A stretch of DNA of 64,000 bases. Source: an uncultured Acidobacteriota bacterium (GTDB taxonomy: Bacteria; Acidobacteriota; CAIWXX01). A program made the position numbers and the translations under genes. Numbering within the stretch: position 1 is the stretch's first letter; the number at the start of each line of letters is the position of its first letter. Below are positions 9,563 through 29,807 of this stretch, one piece after another. The DNA lies in the NCBI GenBank assembly GCA_903916735.1, contig CAIWXX010000053.1, positions 26,260-90,259 on the forward strand, read 5' to 3'. The notes under the pieces are model-generated. The model did no database searches. It was not told where the DNA came from and saw nothing but the letters and a program-made list of their open reading frames with translations.

Positions 9563-10000
9563 TTAGCTCTGGTGAGCCACCATCCGGGCTCGCTTCATCA
9601 GTTTGACTTCCGTGCCCTGTGTCCGGAGGAAACGAAATGCAACATCATCCATGAAGTGGCGCATGAAAAAGATGCCTCGTCCACAAGGCCTCAAGAGGTT
9701 CTCAGGGGCCGTTGGATCCGGTACGGAGGCTGGATCAAATCCAGTTCCTTCATCCCGTACCAGCATCGTGATACTGCCTAGAATGCCATAGAACCGTACC
9801 ATGACATGTTTCCCATCGCTACGCCGATTGCCATGAACGACTGCATTGTTGACAGATTCACGGAGAGCCATGCAGATATCGGACGTCTCTTCCTCGGAAA
9901 ATCCGAGTGTTTGGAGGATGCTGGAACATGCGCTGACTGCCAGTTCCGTGAACCGCAGATCACTGGCGAAGATCATTTCAAGAATCGGCCGTGGCCGCAT
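9563..10000 (-). CDS. anti-sigma regulatory factor / GHKL ATPase (RsbW/SpoIIAB-like Ser/Thr kinase)
   Basis: 145 aa, HATPase_c-like: ...ESVNNAVVHGN ... VRDEGTGFDP ... GRGIFFMRHFMDDV. Confidence 0.65.
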   Translation of the reverse strand: MRPRPILEMIFASDLRFTELAVSACSSILQTLGFSEEETSDICMALRESVNNAVVHGNRRSDGKHVMVRFYGILGSITMLVRDEGTGFDPASVPDPTAPENLLRPCGRGIFFMRHFMDDVAFRFLRTQGTEVKLMKRARMVAHQS

Positions 10001-20179: not shown

Positions 20180-21757
20180 TCATTTCGGTCCCTCCTGCAA
20201 TTGGGTGAGGAGTCTGGTTATTTCAACTCCAAGCTTTCCACTCAGCATAACAATACGACCTTCAGCCAGAACGCGCCTCTGAAAACCTGTTTCCAAGATC
20301 AGCCGCACAGGATCGTTCGGTCCTCGCTGAAGCGTGGCGCATTGCCCGACCTGCCACCGCTTCAATTCGCCCACCGTAATCGGGAATCGATCCAGCTCAA
20401 CCACAATTTGGAGTTCAAGATCGTTGACCGGGACGGATTCTACTTCTTCAACCGGAGTCTCTTTTTCGGGCATAAGCAACCCACCTCCAGGAGTACGCAA
20501 CCAGAGTTTTTCGAGAGCCAGTGTAAGGCGGCCGGCGTCCATATGCAACTGCCCGTTGTGCCAAAAACCGCCTACTTTCAATGTCGCCGGCCCAAGGACG
20601 CGAGGAGTGATTGAGGATTCTTCAGTCCATGATTGGATCGTCCAGAGATCCGGCAGCATCGCATCCCCCGGATCAACCTGCTTCCAGTCGGACACCTTCA
20701 ACCTGATCATTCCGATGCAGACGGAAGCCGGCCATACCAGATCGGTGAGATCGATCGCCGCAGACTGAACAGTCATTTCGCCAATCGGCACAAGAACCGT
20801 GGTGGCAAGTTCAGTCGGCGGAAAGCCAAGCCACACATCTGCTTGCAGCCATTCCTGGCTCCCGGTCATCATTCGATCAGCCTCGGCTCCTGTCATCCAG
20901 CTATCGACTTGCACAAGTATCTGCAACTGATCGCTCAATACCTTCGCAACCTGCAGGAGGATAAATTGAGCGACACCTTCCTCGAGTGCATCCAAGCTCC
21001 AATTATCCTCAAACCGGATCTCGGTCAGCCGCTGCCAGCAAGCCTTGATCCATTGAATCGGCACCCGAACCCATGCCATTGAATCAGCCCACCGGACCCG
21101 CATCCAACGATCCGCTGGGTGAGCCAGCAAGCGGAATGGGCGAGGCTCCTTCACGAGCCGGAAGGCGTCTCCACGAATCTGAAGCAGAGGTGTTTCAGTT
21201 TCCGTACGCTGCGCATTCGCAAAAGTGAATGGATAGGGGCCGATTTCGAATCGGTCCCCAGACCGTAATGCGACCGGAGTCAGAGGCTCTAAACCGACTC
21301 CGTTGAGTCGTGTGCGATTCGTACTCTTCAAATCCATCAACGTCACAACCCCGCGGTCCACCCGGATCTCGGCATGCTCAGTTGAAACCGTCGGACTCGG
21401 AAGCTGGATATGGCAAGACTCACCTCGCCCGATCCGGACCGGCGTGTGATGAAGATGAATTTCCCGTTCCGTCCCATCCGAATCGCGCAAGGTGAGAAGC
21501 AAAGCGAACTCGCCCTGTCCCAAATAGGGCCACCAGGGAGACATCGCCGCTGGCAGGCGATGTACAAAAAGCGGAAGCCATGGGCACAGCTTCTTACGAA
21601 CAAAGGCCTCCCTCATCTGACGATCAATTTCAGCCGGCGTTACTGTCGGTAGAAAATCAATCCAACTCTGCGCCATGCCGCTCTCACTCGCTGCCGCCGG
21701 AGGCTCCTGCGCCGTCGAGGATTCAGGGATGAGGTTATTTCTTTTCCGAGCCATCAT
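20180..21757 (-). CDS. sctQ: FHA-domain :: SpoA (FliN/SctQ) fusion protein; cytoplasmic sorting platform/C-ring component
   Basis: FHA: HLHHTPVRIGRGESCHIQLPSPTVSTEHAEIRV...STNRTRLNGVGL. C-terminal surface-presentation-of-antigens domain: LQIVVELDRFPITVGELKRWQVGQCATLQRGPNDPVRLILETGFQRRVLAEGRIVMLSGKLGVEI. 525 aa. Confidence 0.75.
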   Translation of the reverse strand: MMARKRNNLIPESSTAQEPPAAASESGMAQSWIDFLPTVTPAEIDRQMREAFVRKKLCPWLPLFVHRLPAAMSPWWPYLGQGEFALLLTLRDSDGTEREIHLHHTPVRIGRGESCHIQLPSPTVSTEHAEIRVDRGVVTLMDLKSTNRTRLNGVGLEPLTPVALRSGDRFEIGPYPFTFANAQRTETETPLLQIRGDAFRLVKEPRPFRLLAHPADRWMRVRWADSMAWVRVPIQWIKACWQRLTEIRFEDNWSLDALEEGVAQFILLQVAKVLSDQLQILVQVDSWMTGAEADRMMTGSQEWLQADVWLGFPPTELATTVLVPIGEMTVQSAAIDLTDLVWPASVCIGMIRLKVSDWKQVDPGDAMLPDLWTIQSWTEESSITPRVLGPATLKVGGFWHNGQLHMDAGRLTLALEKLWLRTPGGGLLMPEKETPVEEVESVPVNDLELQIVVELDRFPITVGELKRWQVGQCATLQRGPNDPVRLILETGFQRRVLAEGRIVMLSGKLGVEITRLLTQLQEGPK

Positions 21758-21937: not shown

Positions 21938-22819
21938 CTATTCATCTTCCCTCTCAATGGACTCGCGTTGCCTTCGCCTCTCATCCTGCTGTTGCTGTTC
22001 GGATCCTTGATTCTGCTTCCATTCGTTCTCACTTGAAGCGTGGGATCGCACGAGGGGTTCCGATGGCCCGCTGCGAGTTGGTTCCGTCGTCGGCACGGGC
22101 TGAGGTTCGAACTTGAAGGCCGAATGATCAAGGGTCTGGACGGAGATTTCTTTAAGCACGACCCCCCGAGCATTAAGACGATCAGCCAGCTCCGACACAT
22201 GTGATTTCAGAAGATCCTGTGCGGCGGCTGTGACGGCTTGAAAATCAATCTTGATTTGTCCGTCAGATGTGCGATGAAGCTCTACCGTCATGTTTCCAAG
22301 GTTCGCCATGTTCAGCTCAAGATGCACATCAGTGGCTCCTCCAGGTTGCATCCGGATCTGTACGGCATCCACAATCCGATCAGCAATGGCGTGAATGGAC
22401 TGGTGCGTGGCGTGCATGGTCTGGACATGGACCAGGGGCCGAAACTCGATGGGTTGTTGCGACAACATAAACGGCACAACAACATCGCCTGGCATCGCGC
22501 GTCGCTGAGAAGAGGAATCGTCCCGGCTCCCCTGATCGCCGGAATCCCCCTCCTGTTGACTCGATCCATCCTTGTATTCCTGGAGGAGCTTCACTCCATG
22601 CTCGGTGCCTCGTGCTGTCTCCAACTTCTCCCCATGGACGTTCTCGCGGCCTCGCAGCACGGTACTCTCACTCTGTGCCCGTGTCGTGTGTTGGCCCGCC
22701 GCCTTCTGTTCGATGACCTGATCGAACTCGCCCTTCTGTCCTTCCGCCTTCTTGTCTGGCGGCGCCTCGGCAGGCGCGGTTGATGATTGAGACCCTCTCG
22801 TCTTATTCACGGGTTCCAT
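21938..22819 (-). CDS. sctP: needle/hook-length control protein SctP-like (FliK/YscP C-terminal domain)
   Basis: Low-complexity Q/E/S-rich N-half. C-terminal FliK-like region QPGGATDVHLELNMANLGNMTVELHRTSDGQIKIDFQAVTAAAQDLLKSHVSELADRLNARGVVLKEISV. Start at MEPVNK with a GGAGGAG RBS. Confidence 0.6.
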   Translation of the reverse strand: MEPVNKTRGSQSSTAPAEAPPDKKAEGQKGEFDQVIEQKAAGQHTTRAQSESTVLRGRENVHGEKLETARGTEHGVKLLQEYKDGSSQQEGDSGDQGSRDDSSSQRRAMPGDVVVPFMLSQQPIEFRPLVHVQTMHATHQSIHAIADRIVDAVQIRMQPGGATDVHLELNMANLGNMTVELHRTSDGQIKIDFQAVTAAAQDLLKSHVSELADRLNARGVVLKEISVQTLDHSAFKFEPQPVPTTEPTRSGPSEPLVRSHASSENEWKQNQGSEQQQQDERRRQRESIEREDE

Positions 22820-22927
22820 ATGACTCTCCTCCCCTGTGGATGAGCAGAGCACCTCTCCCGGTCACACTGCTCCTCCGCACCTCTACGGAAACAACCAGCC
22901 CAGCGCGTTCCCCCTTCGTCATGACAA

Positions 22928-23449
22928 TCATGCCTCAGAGTCCTCCTCCTCAGCCTGCTCAGCAGCATCCCGCACAAATCGAGCCAGAGCGATCTCTTCT
23001 CCGAGTTTCTGCTCTTTCTTCGCTGCTTCCTTTTTGACATCGGCCAACCAGTTTTCGTGATGTTTCTCGATCGCCTTCAATTCCTTGTCCGCTTCAACGA
23101 GGGCTGTCTTCCGCGACTCAACAACCTGCTCCGCCGTCTTGACAGCCTTTTCCTGCAAAACAATATTCTTGGCCTTTTCTTCAATCTGGTAGGTGAGATG
23201 CTGGATACCATTTCGTCTCGCGTCGACGAGTGGCACACTGAGAAGGCCTTTCTCATCGGTGTCGTAAAGATGGAGTTGCCAATCGGCCCGCGAAGCGATC
23301 ATTGCATCCTTCTCTCTTTCCAGCTGGCTGAGTCGCTGTTGTTCGGCGTCGAGTGCCTGAATAGAGGTCGCAAAATTCTTTTTCGCATCCTCCTTGGCGC
23401 GGTTCCGCTGATCCAGTATTGTCTGCAGCGGGTATTTCGGCAATCCCAT
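22928..23449 (-). CDS. sctO: T3SS stalk protein SctO (FliJ/YscO), coiled coil
   Basis: 173-aa all-helical K/E/Q-rich protein (…QRLSQLEREKDAMIASRADWQ…) located between sctN and sctP. Confidence 0.6.
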   Translation of the reverse strand: MGLPKYPLQTILDQRNRAKEDAKKNFATSIQALDAEQQRLSQLEREKDAMIASRADWQLHLYDTDEKGLLSVPLVDARRNGIQHLTYQIEEKAKNIVLQEKAVKTAEQVVESRKTALVEADKELKAIEKHHENWLADVKKEAAKKEQKLGEEIALARFVRDAAEQAEEEDSEA

Positions 23450-23499
23450 GTCCTATCGCCTTCTCCAGAGAAGCGTCGATATGCGATTTCGACTGTCTC

Positions 23500-24903
23500 C
23501 TATTTCATTCCGATGACGTTTTTCATCATGATGACCGTCTCATCGAAGCCGTTTTTCTCAAGTGTTCCCTGCCGGAGAAATCCCTCGATTGTTGGAAATC
23601 TTTCAATGGATTCATCAACTCGAGTGTCGGAGCCTTTTTTATAGGCACCGAGGAGAATGAGATCCCGGTTCTTTTCATAATTGGCGATCAGTTCTCGAAC
23701 TTTCTGCGCCGCCATCAAGTGCTCCTGCGTCGCGATAGCCGTCATGACTCGACTTGCGCTACGAAGAACATCGATGGACGGGAAATGACCGCGCGCCGAT
23801 AACTCTCGCGAGAGAATAAGATGTCCATCCAGAATGGATCGGACCTCGTCCGCAACCGGTTCTGTCATATCATCGCCTTCGACAAGGACTGTATAGAATG
23901 CCGTAATGGAACCCTTCTGCGAGTTGCCGGCCCGTTCGAGCAACTTCGGTAGGATTGCAAAAACCGAAGGCGGAAAACCGGCGCGCGCCGGCGGCTCGCC
24001 GATGGCCAGCCCCACTTCTCTCTGGCTTCGCGCAAACCGCGTCACCGAGTCCATCATCAACATGACGCGCAGCCCCTGATCGCGAAAGTACTCGGCGATG
24101 GCCGTCGAAACATACGCCGATTTCAAGCGCACAAGAGACGGCTGATCGGATGTCGCAACGACGGTAACGGAGCGGGCGAGGCCTTCCGGGCCGAGACTCT
24201 CTTCGATGAAGTCCATGACTTCCCGACCGCGCTCGCCTATCAGTGCTATCACATTGACGTCGGCAACCGCGTTGCGAGCCAGCATGCCGAGCAGGGTTGA
24301 TTTGCCGCCGCCCGCTGCGGCAAAGATTCCCATACGCTGGCCTTCGCCGATGGAGAGCACCGAATCGATGGCACGAACACCGACAGGAAAGGGAAACAGG
24401 ACACGCTTGCGTTTCATCGGATCAGGAGGCGGAGCATAAATTGGGTATTCGACTGTCTGAGAAATATCGATCGGCCCTTTTCCGTCGATAGGTTCGCCCA
24501 GTCCGTTCAGGACGCGCCCGAGCAAACAGCGGCCGACTCGCACCGTCATCACATGCCCTGTCGGGCGCACTTCGCTGTCCGGACCGATTCCTGTAAGCTC
24601 GCCAAGAGCCATCAGGTAGACCAGATCGTTCTTAAACCCAACCACCTCCGCTCGCACAGGCTGATCACGCAGTGGTGTTTCGATGTAACATAGCTCGCCG
24701 ATCCGCACTCCAGGCACACGAGCCTTGATGACGAGACCGGTCACTTCGACGACGCGCCCCCTCACCTCGATGAGTGTGACGTCATCAATAAGTTCAAAGT
24801 AGTGCGTCAGGTCAAGGCCAACGAGTTCCTGCTCTGTCATATTACTACGCCTGTAGGATAACCCTGAAAGCCGATCGCCTGTCGTAGCGTCGTCTGCTTT
24901 CAT
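23500..24903 (-). CDS. sctN: T3SS ATPase SctN (FliI/YscN, F1/V1-ATPase beta-like)
   Basis: Walker [18 protein letters not shown]. Walker [47 protein letters not shown]. 467 aa, with a possible internal start at 24840. Confidence 0.92.
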
Positions 24904-24952
24904 CGGGCATTGAATGCTGTCTCTGCACTGTCATGATCACCTTGGAGCCGTC

Positions 24953-25615
24953 TTACCCCTGCCTGGGTGTACTTTGCGTGCCGGTTGTATCCCCCAGAAG
25001 ATGCCTCTCCATGACACGAATCTGAGTCCCAACGGTTGCGTCGACCATCCCGAATTCAGTCTCGATCTTGCATCCGCCGCGTTGCATGGCTTCATCCCCG
25101 ATGATTTCAATTTCGCCGATTGCAGGATTCCGTTCACGCCAGCGCTGGCGACGACTATCGAGAAGTGTATGATCGGCAGGATGAACACGCAGAATAATTT
25201 TCGATTGTGCACGGAGCGACCGAATCGCTTCGTCGATCATGGGCACAACAGATTCCGGAGACATTTCCAGCCGCTGCCGTACGATTTTTTCCGCGACACG
25301 CAGGGCGAGGCGAATGATCTGAGGCTTGGCCTGATCAAGAGTGCTCTTCATCTGTTGGCTGAGACGCTGCGTTTCTGCGTACCACTCGCTTAACCCGCGT
25401 TCACGGCCTTCCTGCAAACCCTGCTGCACGGCGGCATCATGATCAGATTGAGCCGATGCCAGGACCTGTTCCGCTTGAGCGTGTGCGGTCTCAATGATGC
25501 GCCGGCTTTCTTCTCCGGCAGCGATGACTTCGCGTTCGATAATTTTCGGAGTGGATGTAGGAGAGTACGAGGGCGGGTCCATTTCTTCCGTTGATCGCTT
25601 GATGATCTTCGTCAT
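24953..25615 (-). CDS. sctL: T3SS stator protein SctL (FliH/YscL)
   Basis: 220 aa. FliH-like C-terminal region IIRLALRVAEKIVRQRLEMSPESVVPMIDEAIRSL. Immediately upstream of sctN. Confidence 0.65.
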   Translation of the reverse strand: MTKIIKRSTEEMDPPSYSPTSTPKIIEREVIAAGEESRRIIETAHAQAEQVLASAQSDHDAAVQQGLQEGRERGLSEWYAETQRLSQQMKSTLDQAKPQIIRLALRVAEKIVRQRLEMSPESVVPMIDEAIRSLRAQSKIILRVHPADHTLLDSRRQRWRERNPAIGEIEIIGDEAMQRGGCKIETEFGMVDATVGTQIRVMERHLLGDTTGTQSTPRQG

Positions 25616-26592
25616 GACTTCGATGCTCCAGATGACGGCCGTTCATATCGAATCCGGCCTTTTTTACGGAGATCCCTGATGAGTTCCTTCAGCTGCTTTT
25701 TCCATCCTTCAATTGACGGCAGGACAGGCAATGCAGCCCAGGTGGGTGGAGTGTCAATCTTCTGTAGAATCCATCTCCCCAATGTCCTCGGCAGCCGATA
25801 AGCCAGCCGTTTGAAATTCACAGCTTGCAGATCCTGAATTCCACAGCGAAGCCAATCGGAAAGGCCGATCCACAGCAGTAGGTCTTGCAGCACGGGATGG
25901 GCTGTTCGCATCTCTTCGTAGATAATCAACCAGAACGAATCATCCACCCACTTTTTCATTTTGACAATGTCAGCAGCCACCGATTGAATGTCCTCCGGCA
26001 ATTGCCACATCAGCTGCTGCGCGTCGGCCCGCGGGAGCTTCCGCATACAGGAAACGATTCCGAATGTGCCGTGAGCACGCAGAAGCGTGATCACGTCGGA
26101 GTCATCGAACTCCCACAGACTTGACGGCAGATCACTCTCAGTCGGGCCTTTTTTCCATGGAGAGACTTCGGGGTATTTAAATTTGTTCTTGGCGCATTCA
26201 GAAAGCCACATTGGCCACCAGGCAGGGGTTCGCCCGTTAAGAATTGTCACCGTGGTCGGCGATGATTTTTGTGCGCGAGCGCGCGTTTCTTGAGGCAGCG
26301 TTTCCAGCGCCCAAAGGCGCCATTGTGCGGGCCAGGAACGCATCAGATAAATGAGCCATGAAGGGTGAATGGCCCGCCAAGGGATCGTCGATGCTCGCAT
26401 GCCCAATAGCATGAAAAGCCGCCTCTGCACATCCGGCTCCATTTTCTGAAGTTGTTCAGCCATATGGTGAGCCCGCCGCGTGTCGGCTTCTGTTGGTGGT
26501 CCTGAAAAAATCGGGGTCAGCGATCCCGCTTCCTTCCCTGCCTTCAATTCGGCGAAGGCAAAAGAAATATGACTGAGCGGGCTATATTCCAT
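25612..26592 (-). CDS. hypothetical protein at the SctK position (between sctJ and sctL)
   Basis: 326 aa with no clear family motif. Assigned by synteny only (Yersinia order yscJ-yscK-yscL). Faint resemblance to FliG-like helical repeats, not demonstrable by eye. Confidence 0.35.
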   Translation of the reverse strand: MEYSPLSHISFAFAELKAGKEAGSLTPIFSGPPTEADTRRAHHMAEQLQKMEPDVQRRLFMLLGMRASTIPWRAIHPSWLIYLMRSWPAQWRLWALETLPQETRARAQKSSPTTVTILNGRTPAWWPMWLSECAKNKFKYPEVSPWKKGPTESDLPSSLWEFDDSDVITLLRAHGTFGIVSCMRKLPRADAQQLMWQLPEDIQSVAADIVKMKKWVDDSFWLIIYEEMRTAHPVLQDLLLWIGLSDWLRCGIQDLQAVNFKRLAYRLPRTLGRWILQKIDTPPTWAALPVLPSIEGWKKQLKELIRDLRKKGRIRYERPSSGASKS

Positions 26593-26601
26593 GCAGCCGT
26601 C

Positions 26602-27408
26602 CTATTTAGCCTGCCGTTGCGCCGAATGAAGCTGGTGTTCGACGTCGGCGAGTTCGAAGCGAAGTTGTCCAAGGAGACGGCCTTGCCAAAAGAGCATAAA
26701 CGCCAGGACGAAAAAGATGAGGAAAACGAGTATTGCAGTGATCTTGAAAGTCGTCACAGACGCTTCAGCCACTGTCAGCGGTCCGAAGCTCGTGAATGTG
26801 TTGCTCTGCACCATTCTTGTCATTTGGATCTGTTTCATGACGACCGCGACGCTCTCCAGCTTCAAACCATTGACGCCGTTTGCAACAAGCTTCTGCACTT
26901 CTTCAAGGTGGAGCGGAGGCTGCCCGGCGGGGTCAGGCCGATATTCCAGCATGACAGAGGCTTTGGCTTCACCCCGCATTTGCCCGGCTATATCTTCCTC
27001 CGGCAAAACGATGTGAACGCGAGCCGCCACGACATTCGTGACCGATTCCAGAGTGTGCGACAGTTCGCCCTGAAGTGCTTCGAGAAAGAGCGCTTTTTCT
27101 TCGATGGGTGCCACGACCAATTTACTCTTCCCGAAAACATCCTGAAAGCGGCGGCTCGGCATCGCCGGCAACTTGTATTCCTGCAAAACGCTCCACACCT
27201 TGACAGCATCCCGCTTCGGCACCGTCACCCTCCAGGTATTCGCCTCGGCATTATCAAGTTCCTTTGTGGCGATGATGCCCTGATCCTGTAGGATCGCGAT
27301 CACTTGATTCGAGTCCTGCTCGGACAGACTGTGCAAAATCGCCGTGCGACAGCTCGTCACCAACGGCATTGCGAGAATCACCATTAACAGCCATATGTGC
27401 TTTTTCAT
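26602..27408 (-). CDS. sctJ: T3SS inner-membrane ring lipoprotein SctJ (YscJ/PrgK)
   Basis: Start MKKHIWLLMVILAMPLVTSC (lipobox) preceded by a GGAGGG RBS. CRTAILHSLSEQDSNQVIAILQDQGIIATKE…WRVTVPKRDAVKVWSVLQEYKLP is the YscJ signature. C-terminal TM. The ORF track extends to 27675. Confidence 0.85.
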   Translation of the reverse strand: MKKHIWLLMVILAMPLVTSCRTAILHSLSEQDSNQVIAILQDQGIIATKELDNAEANTWRVTVPKRDAVKVWSVLQEYKLPAMPSRRFQDVFGKSKLVVAPIEEKALFLEALQGELSHTLESVTNVVAARVHIVLPEEDIAGQMRGEAKASVMLEYRPDPAGQPPLHLEEVQKLVANGVNGLKLESVAVVMKQIQMTRMVQSNTFTSFGPLTVAEASVTTFKITAILVFLIFFVLAFMLFWQGRLLGQLRFELADVEHQLHSAQRQAK

Positions 27409-27646
27409 CGCCGGATGTTCCCTCCATTTCTGCGAAAGATGCTGAATCCTTGCGAAAATCATAAAGCACATGGGCTGCAAAGTCCAACGCCTGATTTCAC
27501 GACGTCGGGTTCTGTATTCAATGCTTCCGATGCGTTCCGTTCCTTCGGCGCAGGGAAAACAAAGTACCGTCGTCGCGCCATGCATGGCATCGCCCAGGTC
27601 GCTTGGGTGATCCAGAGAGATATACAGCCGATCATTTGCTTCTTCA

Positions 27647-28315
27647 TCAGGGACCAGACCCAATGGAAATCGCATGCATGCCCAACGATTCCCATTTGCT
27701 GCGATCGATGCGTGTCAATGTGATATCAACCCGGGAGCCATCTGACCGAGCGACATGCATACGATCATAAATATCAAAACCCGCAGCCAGGGTTATTCTT
27801 TCCGAGGCCGTATTGCCGGCCAGATGGTACGTGAAAATCGTTTGCAGGTTCAGGCGGAGAAAGAGGTAATCCCGCAAGGTGCAGCCGGCATCCAAACCAA
27901 TACTGATGCCGTTCCGTTGCCTCCTTGCAATAATAGGTCGCATCGCCAAAGGGTCCAGTACAAGCTGCCCGAGCCATGCCGTGCTCGCATTCTGATCCCA
28001 GTTGTACCAACCCACCATCCCCAGGAGATGATTTAGATCTTTATCACGGATCGCCAAAAGAACGGCATACGGCCGTCCAATGCCGAATCTCATCTGAACC
28101 CAGATCGCTCCTGAATCAACCGGGGCCGTGTCGAATGACCACCTCAGAAGCTGAGGTGAATTGCGCAGCTGAATGATCCGATCATATTCGGAAAGCTCGG
28201 GCAACCCGATCCGTATGGACTGACCTTCGCACAGATAAGCGGCCGCCCCTGTGAGAGATGCCACAGACATGGAAGGTCCTTCCGCAGCCGTCGCATAACC
28301 CGACGCAGAGGACAT
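27647..28315 (-). CDS. GNAT-family N-acetyltransferase (RimL/RimJ-like)
   Basis: …AIRDKDLNHLLGMVGWYNWDQNASTAWLGQLVLDP… and …ISIGLDAGCTLRDYLFLRLNLQTIFTYHLAGNTASERITLAAGF resemble the GNAT fold. Occupies the slot between the sctI-like gene and sctJ. Confidence 0.5.
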   Translation of the reverse strand: MSSASGYATAAEGPSMSVASLTGAAAYLCEGQSIRIGLPELSEYDRIIQLRNSPQLLRWSFDTAPVDSGAIWVQMRFGIGRPYAVLLAIRDKDLNHLLGMVGWYNWDQNASTAWLGQLVLDPLAMRPIIARRQRNGISIGLDAGCTLRDYLFLRLNLQTIFTYHLAGNTASERITLAAGFDIYDRMHVARSDGSRVDITLTRIDRSKWESLGMHAISIGSGP

Positions 28316-28370: not shown

Positions 28371-28844
28371 CTATACCTGTTGCTGCATCAGCTGCTTGAT
28401 TCCTGAGACCGCCTCCGATACGACTTTGGTCGTCACTTCGATATGCAAACTGAGCTCATGCATTTCGCCCTGAATCCCGAGGAGTTCTTGTGGCGTATAG
28501 GTGCGATTGCCCTGTAATTGATGGATCAGTTCGTTCAGGCGATTATATCCCGATTCAAGTTCAGTGCCCAACATCTTCAGGCCCTCTGGCGTCTGTGCAA
28601 TTTCCTGCTTTTGTGCCGTCAGTTCCTGAACACGCAGATCGGGTCCGAGGTGCTCGGCCGTCAGCGTGATCTGTTGTTGTTGCGGGCCTTGGATGCCCGC
28701 ACCTTGTTGCATCTGCTGATTTTCACCGAGCTTCGAGAGGACGTCATCGAATTCCTTCAGATTGCCCGGGCCTTCCGACACCAGCTTCTGAGCTTGTTGC
28801 AGAACAGGTCCAATAGATTCCGCTCCGGTGATCGACATCATCAT
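28371..28844 (-). CDS. putative T3SS inner-rod/needle-family protein (SctI-like)
   Basis: 157-aa Q-rich helical protein whose C-terminus (…LHIEVTTKVVSEAVSGIKQLMQQQV) resembles needle/rod family C-termini. Position matches yscI in yscE-F-G-(H)-I-J order. Confidence 0.35.
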   Translation of the reverse strand: MMMSITGAESIGPVLQQAQKLVSEGPGNLKEFDDVLSKLGENQQMQQGAGIQGPQQQQITLTAEHLGPDLRVQELTAQKQEIAQTPEGLKMLGTELESGYNRLNELIHQLQGNRTYTPQELLGIQGEMHELSLHIEVTTKVVSEAVSGIKQLMQQQV

Positions 28845-29346: not shown

Positions 29347-29607
29347 TCACTTGAAGTTGCGAATGGCTGTTGTGGAGGAGTCGAATCGGGCTTTCATGAT
29401 CGTCGACAGAGCCTGAAACACCTGTTGTTCTTTGAGCATGGATTGCTGGAGTTTGAGGTAATAGCCCATGTCCTGTGATCCGGTAGCCTGCGAATCATTG
29501 AGAAGCTTTCCGAACTCTTCAGTGTTGGCATTCGACGTGGAAATGGGATCGCTCCCTCCTGCCACTGTCTGTGAGGATCCGGCATAAGTGATTTTCGTCG
29601 AGCTCAT
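29347..29607 (-). CDS. sctF: T3SS needle filament protein SctF (YscF/PrgI/MxiH family)
   Basis: 86 aa. C-terminus …YYLKLQQSMLKEQQVFQALSTIMKARFDSSTTAIRNFK parallels PrgI/MxiH …YQSKLSEY.LYRNAQSNTVK..KD.DAAIIQNFR. ATGA overlap with the upstream yscE-like gene. Confidence 0.7.
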   Translation of the reverse strand: MSSTKITYAGSSQTVAGGSDPISTSNANTEEFGKLLNDSQATGSQDMGYYLKLQQSMLKEQQVFQALSTIMKARFDSSTTAIRNFK

Positions 29608-29807
29608 ATCTTGCCTCCATATGTCTTATACAGAATCGGCAGCAGTTGCACTGCCATCTGTAGTCCCTTCTGCACGGCCGGCGCCGGTTCCCGCCGGACC
29701 TGAGCCGCGAGATAATCGAGACGTTCCCGGAAATCATTTGACGGCTGGCGGAGCCAGTCGGCAAGCGTCGGAAATGCCTCTGCGTCCAGTTTCAGATTTT
29801 CTGCCAT
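29604..29807 (-). CDS. YscE-like needle co-chaperone
   Basis: 67-aa helical protein directly upstream of, and translationally coupled to, sctF. Size and position match YscE/PscE. AAGGAGG RBS. Confidence 0.45.
   Translation of the reverse strand: MAENLKLDAEAFPTLADWLRQPSNDFRERLDYLAAQVRREPAPAVQKGLQMAVQLLPILYKTYGGKI

Follow-up and report, generated by a model that had tools for sequence, protein, structure and literature searches.

Does the sorting platform of type III secretion systems (T3SS) ever read phosphothreonine (pThr) signals through one of its own core subunits? The question is raised by a 64,000-nucleotide stretch of DNA from an uncultured Acidobacteriota bacterium (contig CAIWXX010000053.1; the whole stretch is called the window here), in which one gene joins an FHA domain to a SctQ-like body. 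A preliminary description had proposed that this gene encodes a canonical SpoA C-terminal domain fused to an N-terminal FHA domain, and that the fusion would couple substrate sorting directly to pThr signalling. We refer to the protein as FHA-SctQ. It is almost certainly a SctQ-like subunit, at the SctQ position, of a non-flagellar T3SS (NF-T3SS), with the domain architecture set out below. Judged from sequence, pThr-dependent regulation in the subfamily to which the window belongs has close to an even chance. Taken as a single statement, identity and architecture together with pThr-dependent regulation, we regard the proposal as reasonably probable. The gene itself is the following.

20180..21757 (-): FHA-SctQ gene, 525 aa, sorting-platform (pod) subunit with an N-terminal FHA module (open reading frame (ORF), Pfam, synteny, orthologues)

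The 525-residue translation contains RIGRGESCHIQLPSP, STEHAEIRV and STNRTRLNG. An in-frame TGA lies immediately 5′ of the annotated first ATG, so that the ORF cannot extend further. Met1, Met2 and Met28 all lack a good Shine-Dalgarno (SD) sequence, and the choice of start is immaterial for the domains. Both domains were recovered by Pfam at the expected ends of the protein. FHA PF00498 covers residues 107-173 over its full model (positions 1-67 of 67; E 2.3e-19, 70 bits, cut-off 20.7 bits), and FliMN_C/SpoA PF01052 covers residues 444-517 (E 3.5e-9, 36.9 bits, cut-off 23.8 bits). Such scores for the two profiles in one ORF are far beyond chance. The Pfam model of the SctD-cytoplasmic FHA, Yop-YscD_cpl, overlaps residues 98-182 (E 4e-12), and the NCBIfam TagH model TIGR03354 gives a weak match (E 3.6e-10). 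The NCBIfam SctQ model TIGR02551 aligns residues 336-516 with its positions 133-300 (E 8.4e-14). The gene is placed between sctP and fliO-sctRSTUV, and the insertion of fliO between sctQ and sctR is the sole departure from the sctP-sctQ-sctR order.

An AlphaFold2 model computed from a 19-sequence alignment (mean predicted local distance difference test score, pLDDT, of 78.6; predicted template-modelling score, pTM, of 0.47) divides the protein into the following elements.

21533..21664 (-): helical hairpin ahead of the FHA domain, residues 32-75 (AlphaFold2 helices 41-57 and 61-75, pLDDT 85-91; conserved columns)
21203..21508 (-): FHA beta-sandwich with a canonical pThr pocket, residues 84-185 (Pfam, invariant residues, Foldseek, PDB profile)
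20753..21190 (-): FliM-middle/SctQ-N-like alpha/beta domain, residues 190-335 (AlphaFold2, Foldseek)
20498..20737 (-): SpoA1, residues 341-420 (Foldseek, TIGR02551 alignment)
20432..20497 (-): disordered SpoA1-SpoA2 linker with an internal start, residues 421-442 (pLDDT < 50; unconserved save for Met/Val)
20210..20416 (-): SpoA2 (FliN-like), residues 448-516 (Pfam FliMN_C; PDB profile matches)

Residues 1-30 are modelled as a disordered tail. The hairpin that follows is flanked by W32, W76 and P77, which are invariant in the ortholog alignment; no hairpin-like element of this kind was noticed in other FHA proteins. The eleven-stranded FHA fold is modelled at pLDDT 84-94 over residues 84-185. 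In a Foldseek search of the PDB it matches the FHA domains of Ki67, FhaA/Rv0020c, GarA, OdhI, DgcB and EmbR with template-modelling scores (TMt) of 0.8-0.9; for Ki67, FhaA, GarA and DgcB the root-mean-square deviation (rmsd) is 1.6-2.6 Å and TMt 0.81-0.91. Residues 190-335 match full-length FliM in cryo-electron microscopy structures of the C-ring (8wiw_7, 8umd_C) and the middle domain of Helicobacter pylori FliM (4fq0_B, rmsd 3.8 over 144 columns). The top Foldseek match, with a TMt of 0.73 across 180 columns (E 1.6e-9), is the FliM(SpoA)::FliN tandem 4yxc_B; in the AlphaFold2 model two SpoA domains are joined by a short flexible linker. A PDB profile search matched the C-terminus with FliN, HrcQB-C (1o9y) and YscQ-C (3uep). 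On the model, FHA-SctQ is a complete SctQ to which about 190 N-terminal residues, the helical hairpin and the FHA domain, have been added.

The fusion recurs well beyond the window. The identical protein is recorded on 7 independent contigs, with an uninterrupted ORF in each, and the combination of FHA and FliMN_C was found in 18 further proteins with 39-56 % identity to FHA-SctQ. Orthologous fusions, for which the preliminary description had advised a search, were recovered when 1.84 billion cluster representatives were searched exhaustively with a profile. Members of about 30 clusters at 50 % identity align with the whole profile without a break, and about 25 clusters found in this way are more distant than the 18 proteins. 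More than 40 uninterrupted fusion homologues were collected from NCBI, ENA, JGI and Logan assemblies, and none of the fusion homologues found has a frameshift or stop between the FHA and SpoA domains. All named hosts are Acidobacteriota. A genome scan of 185,579 species representatives placed the fusion in seven Acidobacteriota metagenome-assembled genomes; the sole other SctQ match in that scan was an ordinary 347-aa SctQ without FHA from Desulfovibrio, the nearest SctQ outside the Acidobacteriota. When the FHA part was removed, the SctQ-only profile retrieved 11 proteins from a word-indexed database, all of them FHA fusions with no FHA-less neighbours. The FHA-to-SctQ junction (residues 186-240, including D216, R217 and W218) is conserved among orthologues. 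The same core synteny, from sctJ through two terminal FHA genes, is seen at two other loci, L011 (50 % identity) and L012 (21 % identity, on a 4.5-Mb contig). As far as sequences can tell, the fusion is real and under selection.

Three candidates were set aside in this survey. L009 (Chloroflexota), considered as a fusion outside the phylum, was rejected and has several separate FHA ORFs. P0078 and P0062, considered as FHA-less relatives, come from contigs of about 1 kb and have non-Met first residues, so that their N-termini have probably been truncated. Both domains are already listed together in one JGI auto-annotation, and homologues have been named automatically, for instance as 'FliM/FliN family flagellar motor switch protein'. 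The remark in the preliminary description that characterised injectisomes carry FHA on SctD, not on SctQ, agrees with the literature (bioRxiv 10.1101/2020.09.22.308627), and we found no paper in the open-access literature that describes an FHA-SctQ/FliN fusion or an Acidobacteriota NF-T3SS.

Whether the FHA domain is a pThr reader was judged from its pocket. The pocket pattern in FHA-SctQ is G110 R111 / S125-x-x-H128 / S145 T146 N147 / N152, and these eight residues are invariant in 21/21 subfamily sequences (P0001-P0021), down to 36 % identity. Mean column identity in the subfamily alignment is 59 %, against which eight invariant pocket residues are hard to explain without selection on the pocket. 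PDB sequence-profile matches of the domain are pThr readers only (FhaA/Rv0020c, GarA, OdhI, DgcB, Ki67 and Rad53), and no SctD FHA is among them at E <= 0.01. Binding of pThr needs an Arg in the β3–β4 loop and a Ser in the β4–β5 loop; the structurally known SctD cytoplasmic FHAs all lack this Arg and Ser and bind SctK phospho-independently (bioRxiv 10.1101/2020.09.22.308627). In the wider family (21-32 % identity) the pocket is kept in nine clusters. The conservation pattern suggests that FHA-SctQ may place docking or activity of the secretion machine under phospho-regulation.

The preliminary description had also asked whether an internal translation start gives a separate SctQ-C product, as in other SctQ/FliN systems. 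Two features of the FHA-SctQ gene bear on this point.

20180..20473 (-): predicted internally initiated SctQ-C, Met429 to the stop, 97 aa, SpoA2 only (conserved start, SD)
20483..20488 (-): SD-like GGAGGT, 9 nt upstream of the internal ATG (sequence, anti-SD duplex energy)

The Met429 codon is an ATG at 20471-20473, inside the disordered SpoA1-SpoA2 linker. Its anti-SD duplex energy of -13.8 kcal/mol is the best of the 43 in-frame ATG/GTG/TTG codons and falls in the top 0.6 % of codon positions. The equivalent column holds ATG or GTG in each of the nine genes for which DNA was available, and in 5/9 of them, L012 with its 21 % identity among these, no other SD-linked start is stronger. At the protein level, a Met or Val occurs within 1-2 residues of the Met429 position in nearly all 44 fusion proteins, in a linker that is otherwise unconserved. 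Internal starts that give SctQ-C are known for YscQ (Met218) and SpaO (Val203, a GTG) (PMC4443714). The gene thus has computational support for an internal start, and two proteins are most likely made from it, one of 525 aa and, from Met429, a SctQ-C of 97 aa. A metagenomic sequence, P0100, is a separately called 99-aa protein that spans profile positions 408-502 and begins at the Met429 equivalent; this may be a SctQ-C gene standing alone, or else the call may stem from a truncated contig.

Two further FHA proteins are encoded at the end of the same operon. Like the SpoA1-SpoA2 tandem with its preceding FliM-middle-like domain, they had been missed by the preliminary description.

13117..13845 (-): tail-anchored FHA protein, 242 aa, with a canonical FHA domain, a Pro-rich linker and a C-terminal transmembrane segment, 215-242 (Pfam FHA 8.8e-17, transmembrane prediction)
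11063..13120 (-): SctD-topology protein, 685 aa, with an N-terminal canonical FHA domain, one transmembrane segment (168-196) and a large periplasmic part with TIG/IPT (Pfam, transmembrane prediction)

Pfam finds FHA (3.8e-20), Yop-YscD_cpl (2e-14) and TIG in the 685-aa protein. The SctD model TIGR02500 matches it weakly and over the FHA and transmembrane region only (residues 26-193, E 7e-4); its periplasmic part, which carries the Ig-like TIG/IPT, shows no similarity that could be detected to the canonical SctD periplasmic region. The gene is kept at the operon end in L011, L006, L007 and L012. As the cluster has its own SctD-topology FHA protein, the FHA domain of SctQ is an addition, not a relocation. 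The GR, SxxH and (S/T)xN motifs are canonical in both companion FHAs, and the three FHA domains of the operon are 28-36 % identical to one another, which marks them as old paralogues and not recent copies. The linker of the 242-aa protein is otherwise variable and holds a motif with two Thr, PATMWEIQTGVY(R/N/Q)S..MQ(I/V)DD, common to the L011 and L006 orthologues. The PATMWEIQTGVY motif is a candidate phospho-site or short linear motif and a candidate FHA ligand; we treat it as a lead, not as evidence. In L007 (CAVSPR010000001.1, ~16865-19762) an ORF resembling the 242-aa protein continues in frame into the SctD-like gene to give 972 aa. The joined ORF reads FHA-linker-FHA-transmembrane-periplasm and resembles Chlamydia CdsD in being an SctD with two FHA domains. 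Either the join is a Rosetta-stone hint at joint action of the two proteins, or it reflects a problem of assembly or a frameshift.

The T3SS cluster extends from ~11063 to ~32367 with all genes on the minus strand, and is flanked by housekeeping genes. In the order of transcription it begins with a FliA/WhiG-like sigma factor, a 292-aa protein, TPR proteins with two small ORFs, and an HrpB1-like TPR protein. A weak SctI-like protein, a GNAT acetyltransferase, SctJ, a 326-aa protein, SctL, SctN, SctO, SctP (FliK-like) and FHA-SctQ come next, followed by a FliO homologue, SctR, SctS, SctT, SctU, SctV and the 242-aa and 685-aa FHA proteins. The groups outside the FHA genes are as follows.

13971..20151 (-): sctV, sctU, sctT, sctS, sctR and the FliO homologue, export apparatus (Pfam, NCBIfam)
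21938..27675 (-): sctP (FliK-like), sctO, sctN, sctL, the 326-aa gene and sctJ (Pfam, NCBIfam)
25612..26592 (-): conserved 326-aa protein at the sctK position, between sctJ and sctL (orthologues at the same place in L011 and L012)
28371-28844, 29347-29807, 30524-31402 (-): SctI-/needle-like proteins (157 and 292 aa) and two small unannotated ORFs (67 and 86 aa)

The NCBIfam models place the cluster among non-flagellar systems. SctV scores 777 bits (cut-off 692) with FlhA under its cut-off; SctN passes TIGR02546 (608.5 > 604.75 bits) with FliI clades 1-3 under theirs; SctR passes its equivalog cut-off and FliP fails. The inner ring protein is SctJ-like and not FliF (146 vs 53 bits), and the cluster holds no FliG, MotAB, rod, hook or flagellin gene. 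Flagellum-like traits are also present. The FliO homologue (19807-20151 (-)) lies between sctQ and sctR, SctO (22928-23449 (-)) passes the FliJ equivalog cut-off (58.1 > 50.45 bits), and the FliA/WhiG-like sigma factor (31642-32367 (-)) stands at the cluster head. A search of all ORFs of at least 400 aa found no secretin in the 64-kb window, and none lies within ±10 kb of the cluster in L011 and L012, a result that speaks for these loci only. The system belongs to a T3SS family so far seen only in Acidobacteriota, with FliO present and no secretin in the locus.

Some genes of the cluster deserve separate mention. The 157-aa protein gives a weak SctI-family match (E 5.6e-4) and the 292-aa protein a needle-family match at its C-terminus (E 0.0027); these genes and the small ORFs are missing from the L011 locus, which begins at sctJ. 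The longest SctJ ORF (357 aa, 26602-27675 (-)) overlaps the upstream GNAT gene (27647-28315 (-)). Because a lipoprotein-like signal, MKKHIWLLMVILAMPLVTSC, starts around residue 90 and the L011 orthologue has 273 aa, the true SctJ start is probably near Met90. A GNAT acetyltransferase within a T3SS operon is unusual in itself. The 326-aa protein is Trp-rich and mostly helical. No more than 4 homologues can be detected, Pfam, NCBIfam and PDB profile searches give no match, and its AlphaFold2 model from 5 sequences (pLDDT 46) is unusable. A divergent SctK and a FliG-like adaptor are both conceivable identities. About 1 kb past the end of the cluster lies an RsbW-like anti-sigma Ser kinase domain (HATPase_c_2, E 8e-25, 9563-10000 (-)); no other kinase-like gene lies near the cluster, and this RsbW type is not known to make FHA ligands.

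How might such a protein work? By analogy with YscQ and SpaO, the SctQ body and SctQ-C would assemble through SpoA-SpoA contacts into the pod and bind SctL and SctN. The FHA domain would then occupy the pod's membrane-proximal end, at which canonical SctQ contacts SctK and the cytoplasmic FHA ring of SctD. There it may bind a phosphothreonine on a basal-body or regulatory partner and so promote docking of the pod. The best candidates for this partner would be the cytoplasmic linkers of the two membrane-anchored FHA proteins at the operon end. Docking or activation of the sorting platform would in this way depend on a Ser/Thr kinase-phosphatase pair encoded elsewhere, in a manner analogous to PpkA-Fha control of type VI secretion system (T6SS) assembly and conceptually to the binding of phosphorylated CheY (CheY-P) by the FliM N-terminus. 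In distant relatives that lack the pocket, the domain would be a constitutive, phospho-independent adaptor, as are the SctD FHAs. Our reading is therefore one of two layers of function, a structural role of the fold that would be family-wide and a strongly selected pThr-dependent role predicted for the subfamily of the window.

Several observations weigh against parts of this reading. On the side of identity, the TIGR02551 score of 52.2 bits is below the 100.8-bit equivalog cut-off, and FHA-SctQ is accordingly classed from its sequence as a divergent SctQ member, not an equivalog by the NCBI criterion. A pTM of 0.47 makes the inter-domain geometry of the AlphaFold2 model unreliable, and the placement of the FHA domain relative to the basal body is taken from canonical injectisome architecture. 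The internal SD signal is weak in 4/9 genes, and it overlaps a conserved Pro-Gly-Gly peptide, so that amino-acid constraint partly confounds it. On the side of signalling, about 12 distant fusion lineages (P0027, 36, 37, 39, 41, 42, 47, 58, 63, 66, 72 and 182) keep the domain and the synteny without the Arg, Ser, His and Asn of the pocket. Neither a Hanks kinase nor a PP2C phosphatase was found in the 64-kb window or within ±10 kb of the cluster in L011 and L012, and no other obvious pThr writer or eraser was seen in the window or the two orthologous neighbourhoods. The locus thus lacks the cognate kinase and phosphatase of a T6SS-like Fha/PpkA/PppA switch. As a pThr ligand, the linker motif is no more than a candidate. 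The coupling of sorting to pThr signalling advanced in the preliminary description is plausible for the subfamily, with its invariant pocket and its pThr-reading relatives, and has partial support.

In the main rival explanation the domain is a purely structural adaptor, a second SctD-like FHA fold on SctQ that would strengthen or replace the link from pod to basal body with no phospho-signalling. Loss of the pocket with retention of the domain in some 12 lineages points to a structural role of the domain too, and shows that the fusion in itself can do without pThr binding. In these pocket-less domains Pfam detects only Yop-YscD_cpl, no kinase or phosphatase was seen in any inspected neighbourhood, and SctD FHAs are documented to work without pThr (bioRxiv 10.1101/2020.09.22.308627). 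However, a purely structural role does not account well for eight signature residues that never vary in 21 sequences of 59 % mean column identity; the nearest solved relatives, by sequence and by fold, are pThr readers and not SctD FHAs, and the other two FHA domains of the operon are canonical too. We consider this explanation less likely than not, while giving it real weight. An intramolecular switch of the GarA/OdhI or DgcB kind, in which the FHA domain would bind a phospho-Thr in its own N-terminal tail and open or close SctQ, draws on the disorder of residues 1-30 with their Ser/Thr (ESSTAQE) and on the presence of GarA, OdhI and DgcB, which use such a mechanism, among the close structural matches. 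The tail is conserved in neither length nor sequence, however, many orthologues begin a few residues before W32, and there is no conserved Thr motif; we have down-weighted this alternative, which seems improbable.

The two remaining explanations concern what the protein is. It could be a FliM/FliN-type C-ring subunit, the cluster being a degenerate or unusual flagellar export gate, as the automatic flagellar names, the FliO homologue, the FliJ-equivalog SctO, the FliK-like Flg_hook domain, the FliA/WhiG-like sigma factor and the structural match to FliM might imply. Against this stand the scores of SctV, SctN and SctR over non-flagellar cut-offs with FlhA, FliP and FliI clades 1-3 below theirs, the SctJ-like inner ring (146 vs 53 bits for FliF), the absence of FliG, MotAB, rod, hook and flagellin genes from the cluster, the YscO-like, HrpB1-like, SctI-like and needle-family matches, and the presence of SpoA1 and SpoA2 in one polypeptide, as in SctQ. 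A flagellar switch is thus very improbable. The last explanation, an FHA gene and an sctQ joined by a sequencing or assembly frameshift, is one that the preliminary description had itself raised. We found nothing in its support, and the 7 independent contigs, the more than 40 intact homologues, the conserved junction and the confident AlphaFold2 model at that junction leave it practically no chance.

Comparison with known systems sets the SctQ-like features of the protein apart from its added module. FHA-SctQ resembles YscQ, SpaO, Spa33 and HrcQ in its position after sctP and before sctR, its sctL and sctN neighbours, its FliM-middle-like domain, its SpoA1-linker-SpoA2 order and its predicted linker start for a ~97-aa SctQ-C. 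Ordinary SctQ proteins have ~300-350 aa, whereas FHA-SctQ has ~190 extra N-terminal residues. The hosts of characterised SctQ proteins are Pseudomonadota and Chlamydiota, whereas that of FHA-SctQ belongs to the Acidobacteriota and its locus has FliO and no secretin. With the FHA domains of SctD (YscD, PrgH, MxiG, PscD; Chlamydia CdsD) it shares an FHA fold, which in FHA-SctQ would likewise lie at the interface of inner-membrane ring and sorting platform; Yop-YscD_cpl matches FHA-SctQ, and the Chlamydia CT664/CdsD FHA (3gqs) is among the Foldseek matches. The SctD domains are membrane-tethered and lack the pThr Arg and Ser, whereas the FHA domain of FHA-SctQ is carried by a soluble pod protein and has a full pocket. 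FliM likewise has a middle domain and SpoA, and a phospho-signal enters at its N-terminus, where a peptide is bound by CheY-P. In FliM the reader is a short peptide that binds phospho-Asp CheY, and there is one SpoA with a separate FliN; FHA-SctQ has a folded, predicted pThr reader and two SpoA domains.

Fha/TagH of the T6SS is also a canonical FHA protein encoded in a secretion cluster and proposed to gate assembly through pThr recognition. T6SS Fha systems usually have ppkA/pppA nearby. Fha is a separate scaffold of an unrelated machine, whereas here the FHA domain is fused to a core subunit and no ppkA/pppA-like genes are near. Among T3SSs, a close parallel is the 'Myxo' NF-T3SS family, which lacks secretin, SctF, tip and translocon and is restricted to Cystobacterineae (Abby and Rocha 2012, PMC3459982); the same survey found no NF-T3SS in Acidobacteria (PMC3459982). 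FliO occurs in Myxococcota NF-T3SSs (PMC12403147), and the needle-less T3SS* of Myxococcus functions in prey lysis (PMC12075869). The Acidobacteriota system shares with the Myxo NF-T3SS and the T3SS* of Myxococcus xanthus the lack of a secretin in the locus, a FliO homologue, a chromosomal location and a soil-type, non-pathogen lineage. It differs in phylum, all named FHA-SctQ hosts being Acidobacteriota and not Cystobacterineae, and there are weak C-terminal matches to the SctI and needle families in its cluster. The Nat Commun 2025 paper on the T3SS* and its supplements do not mention FHA or SctQ for this system, and a review mentions FHA proteins only in kil clusters. We put forward as a tentative possibility that the cluster represents an undescribed, early-branching Acidobacteriota NF-T3SS, Myxo-like in having FliO, a FliJ-like SctO and a FliA-like sigma factor and no secretin, with a cytoplasmic face built on three pThr-competent FHAs (SctQ, the SctD-topology ring protein and the tail-anchored partner).

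T3SS biology still asks how the pod docks and exchanges with the basal body, and under the control of which signals. The known link runs from SctQ through SctK to the FHA domain of SctD, which is degenerate and phospho-independent. In the FHA-SctQ system the pod protein and the ring protein both appear, from their motifs, to carry an intact FHA. If these domains are functional, this would be a natural system with kinase-switchable platform docking and a handle for testing the dynamic-exchange model, and it would be a hint of a true phospho-reader in the ancestry of the SctD FHA fold. The cluster also documents a T3SS family in the Acidobacteriota, a phylum absent from the 2012 NF-T3SS survey, with features common to the predation-linked needle-less T3SS* of Myxococcus. 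If the proposal is true, a Ser/Thr-kinase signal would here, for the first time in a T3SS, be read directly by a core subunit of the sorting platform.

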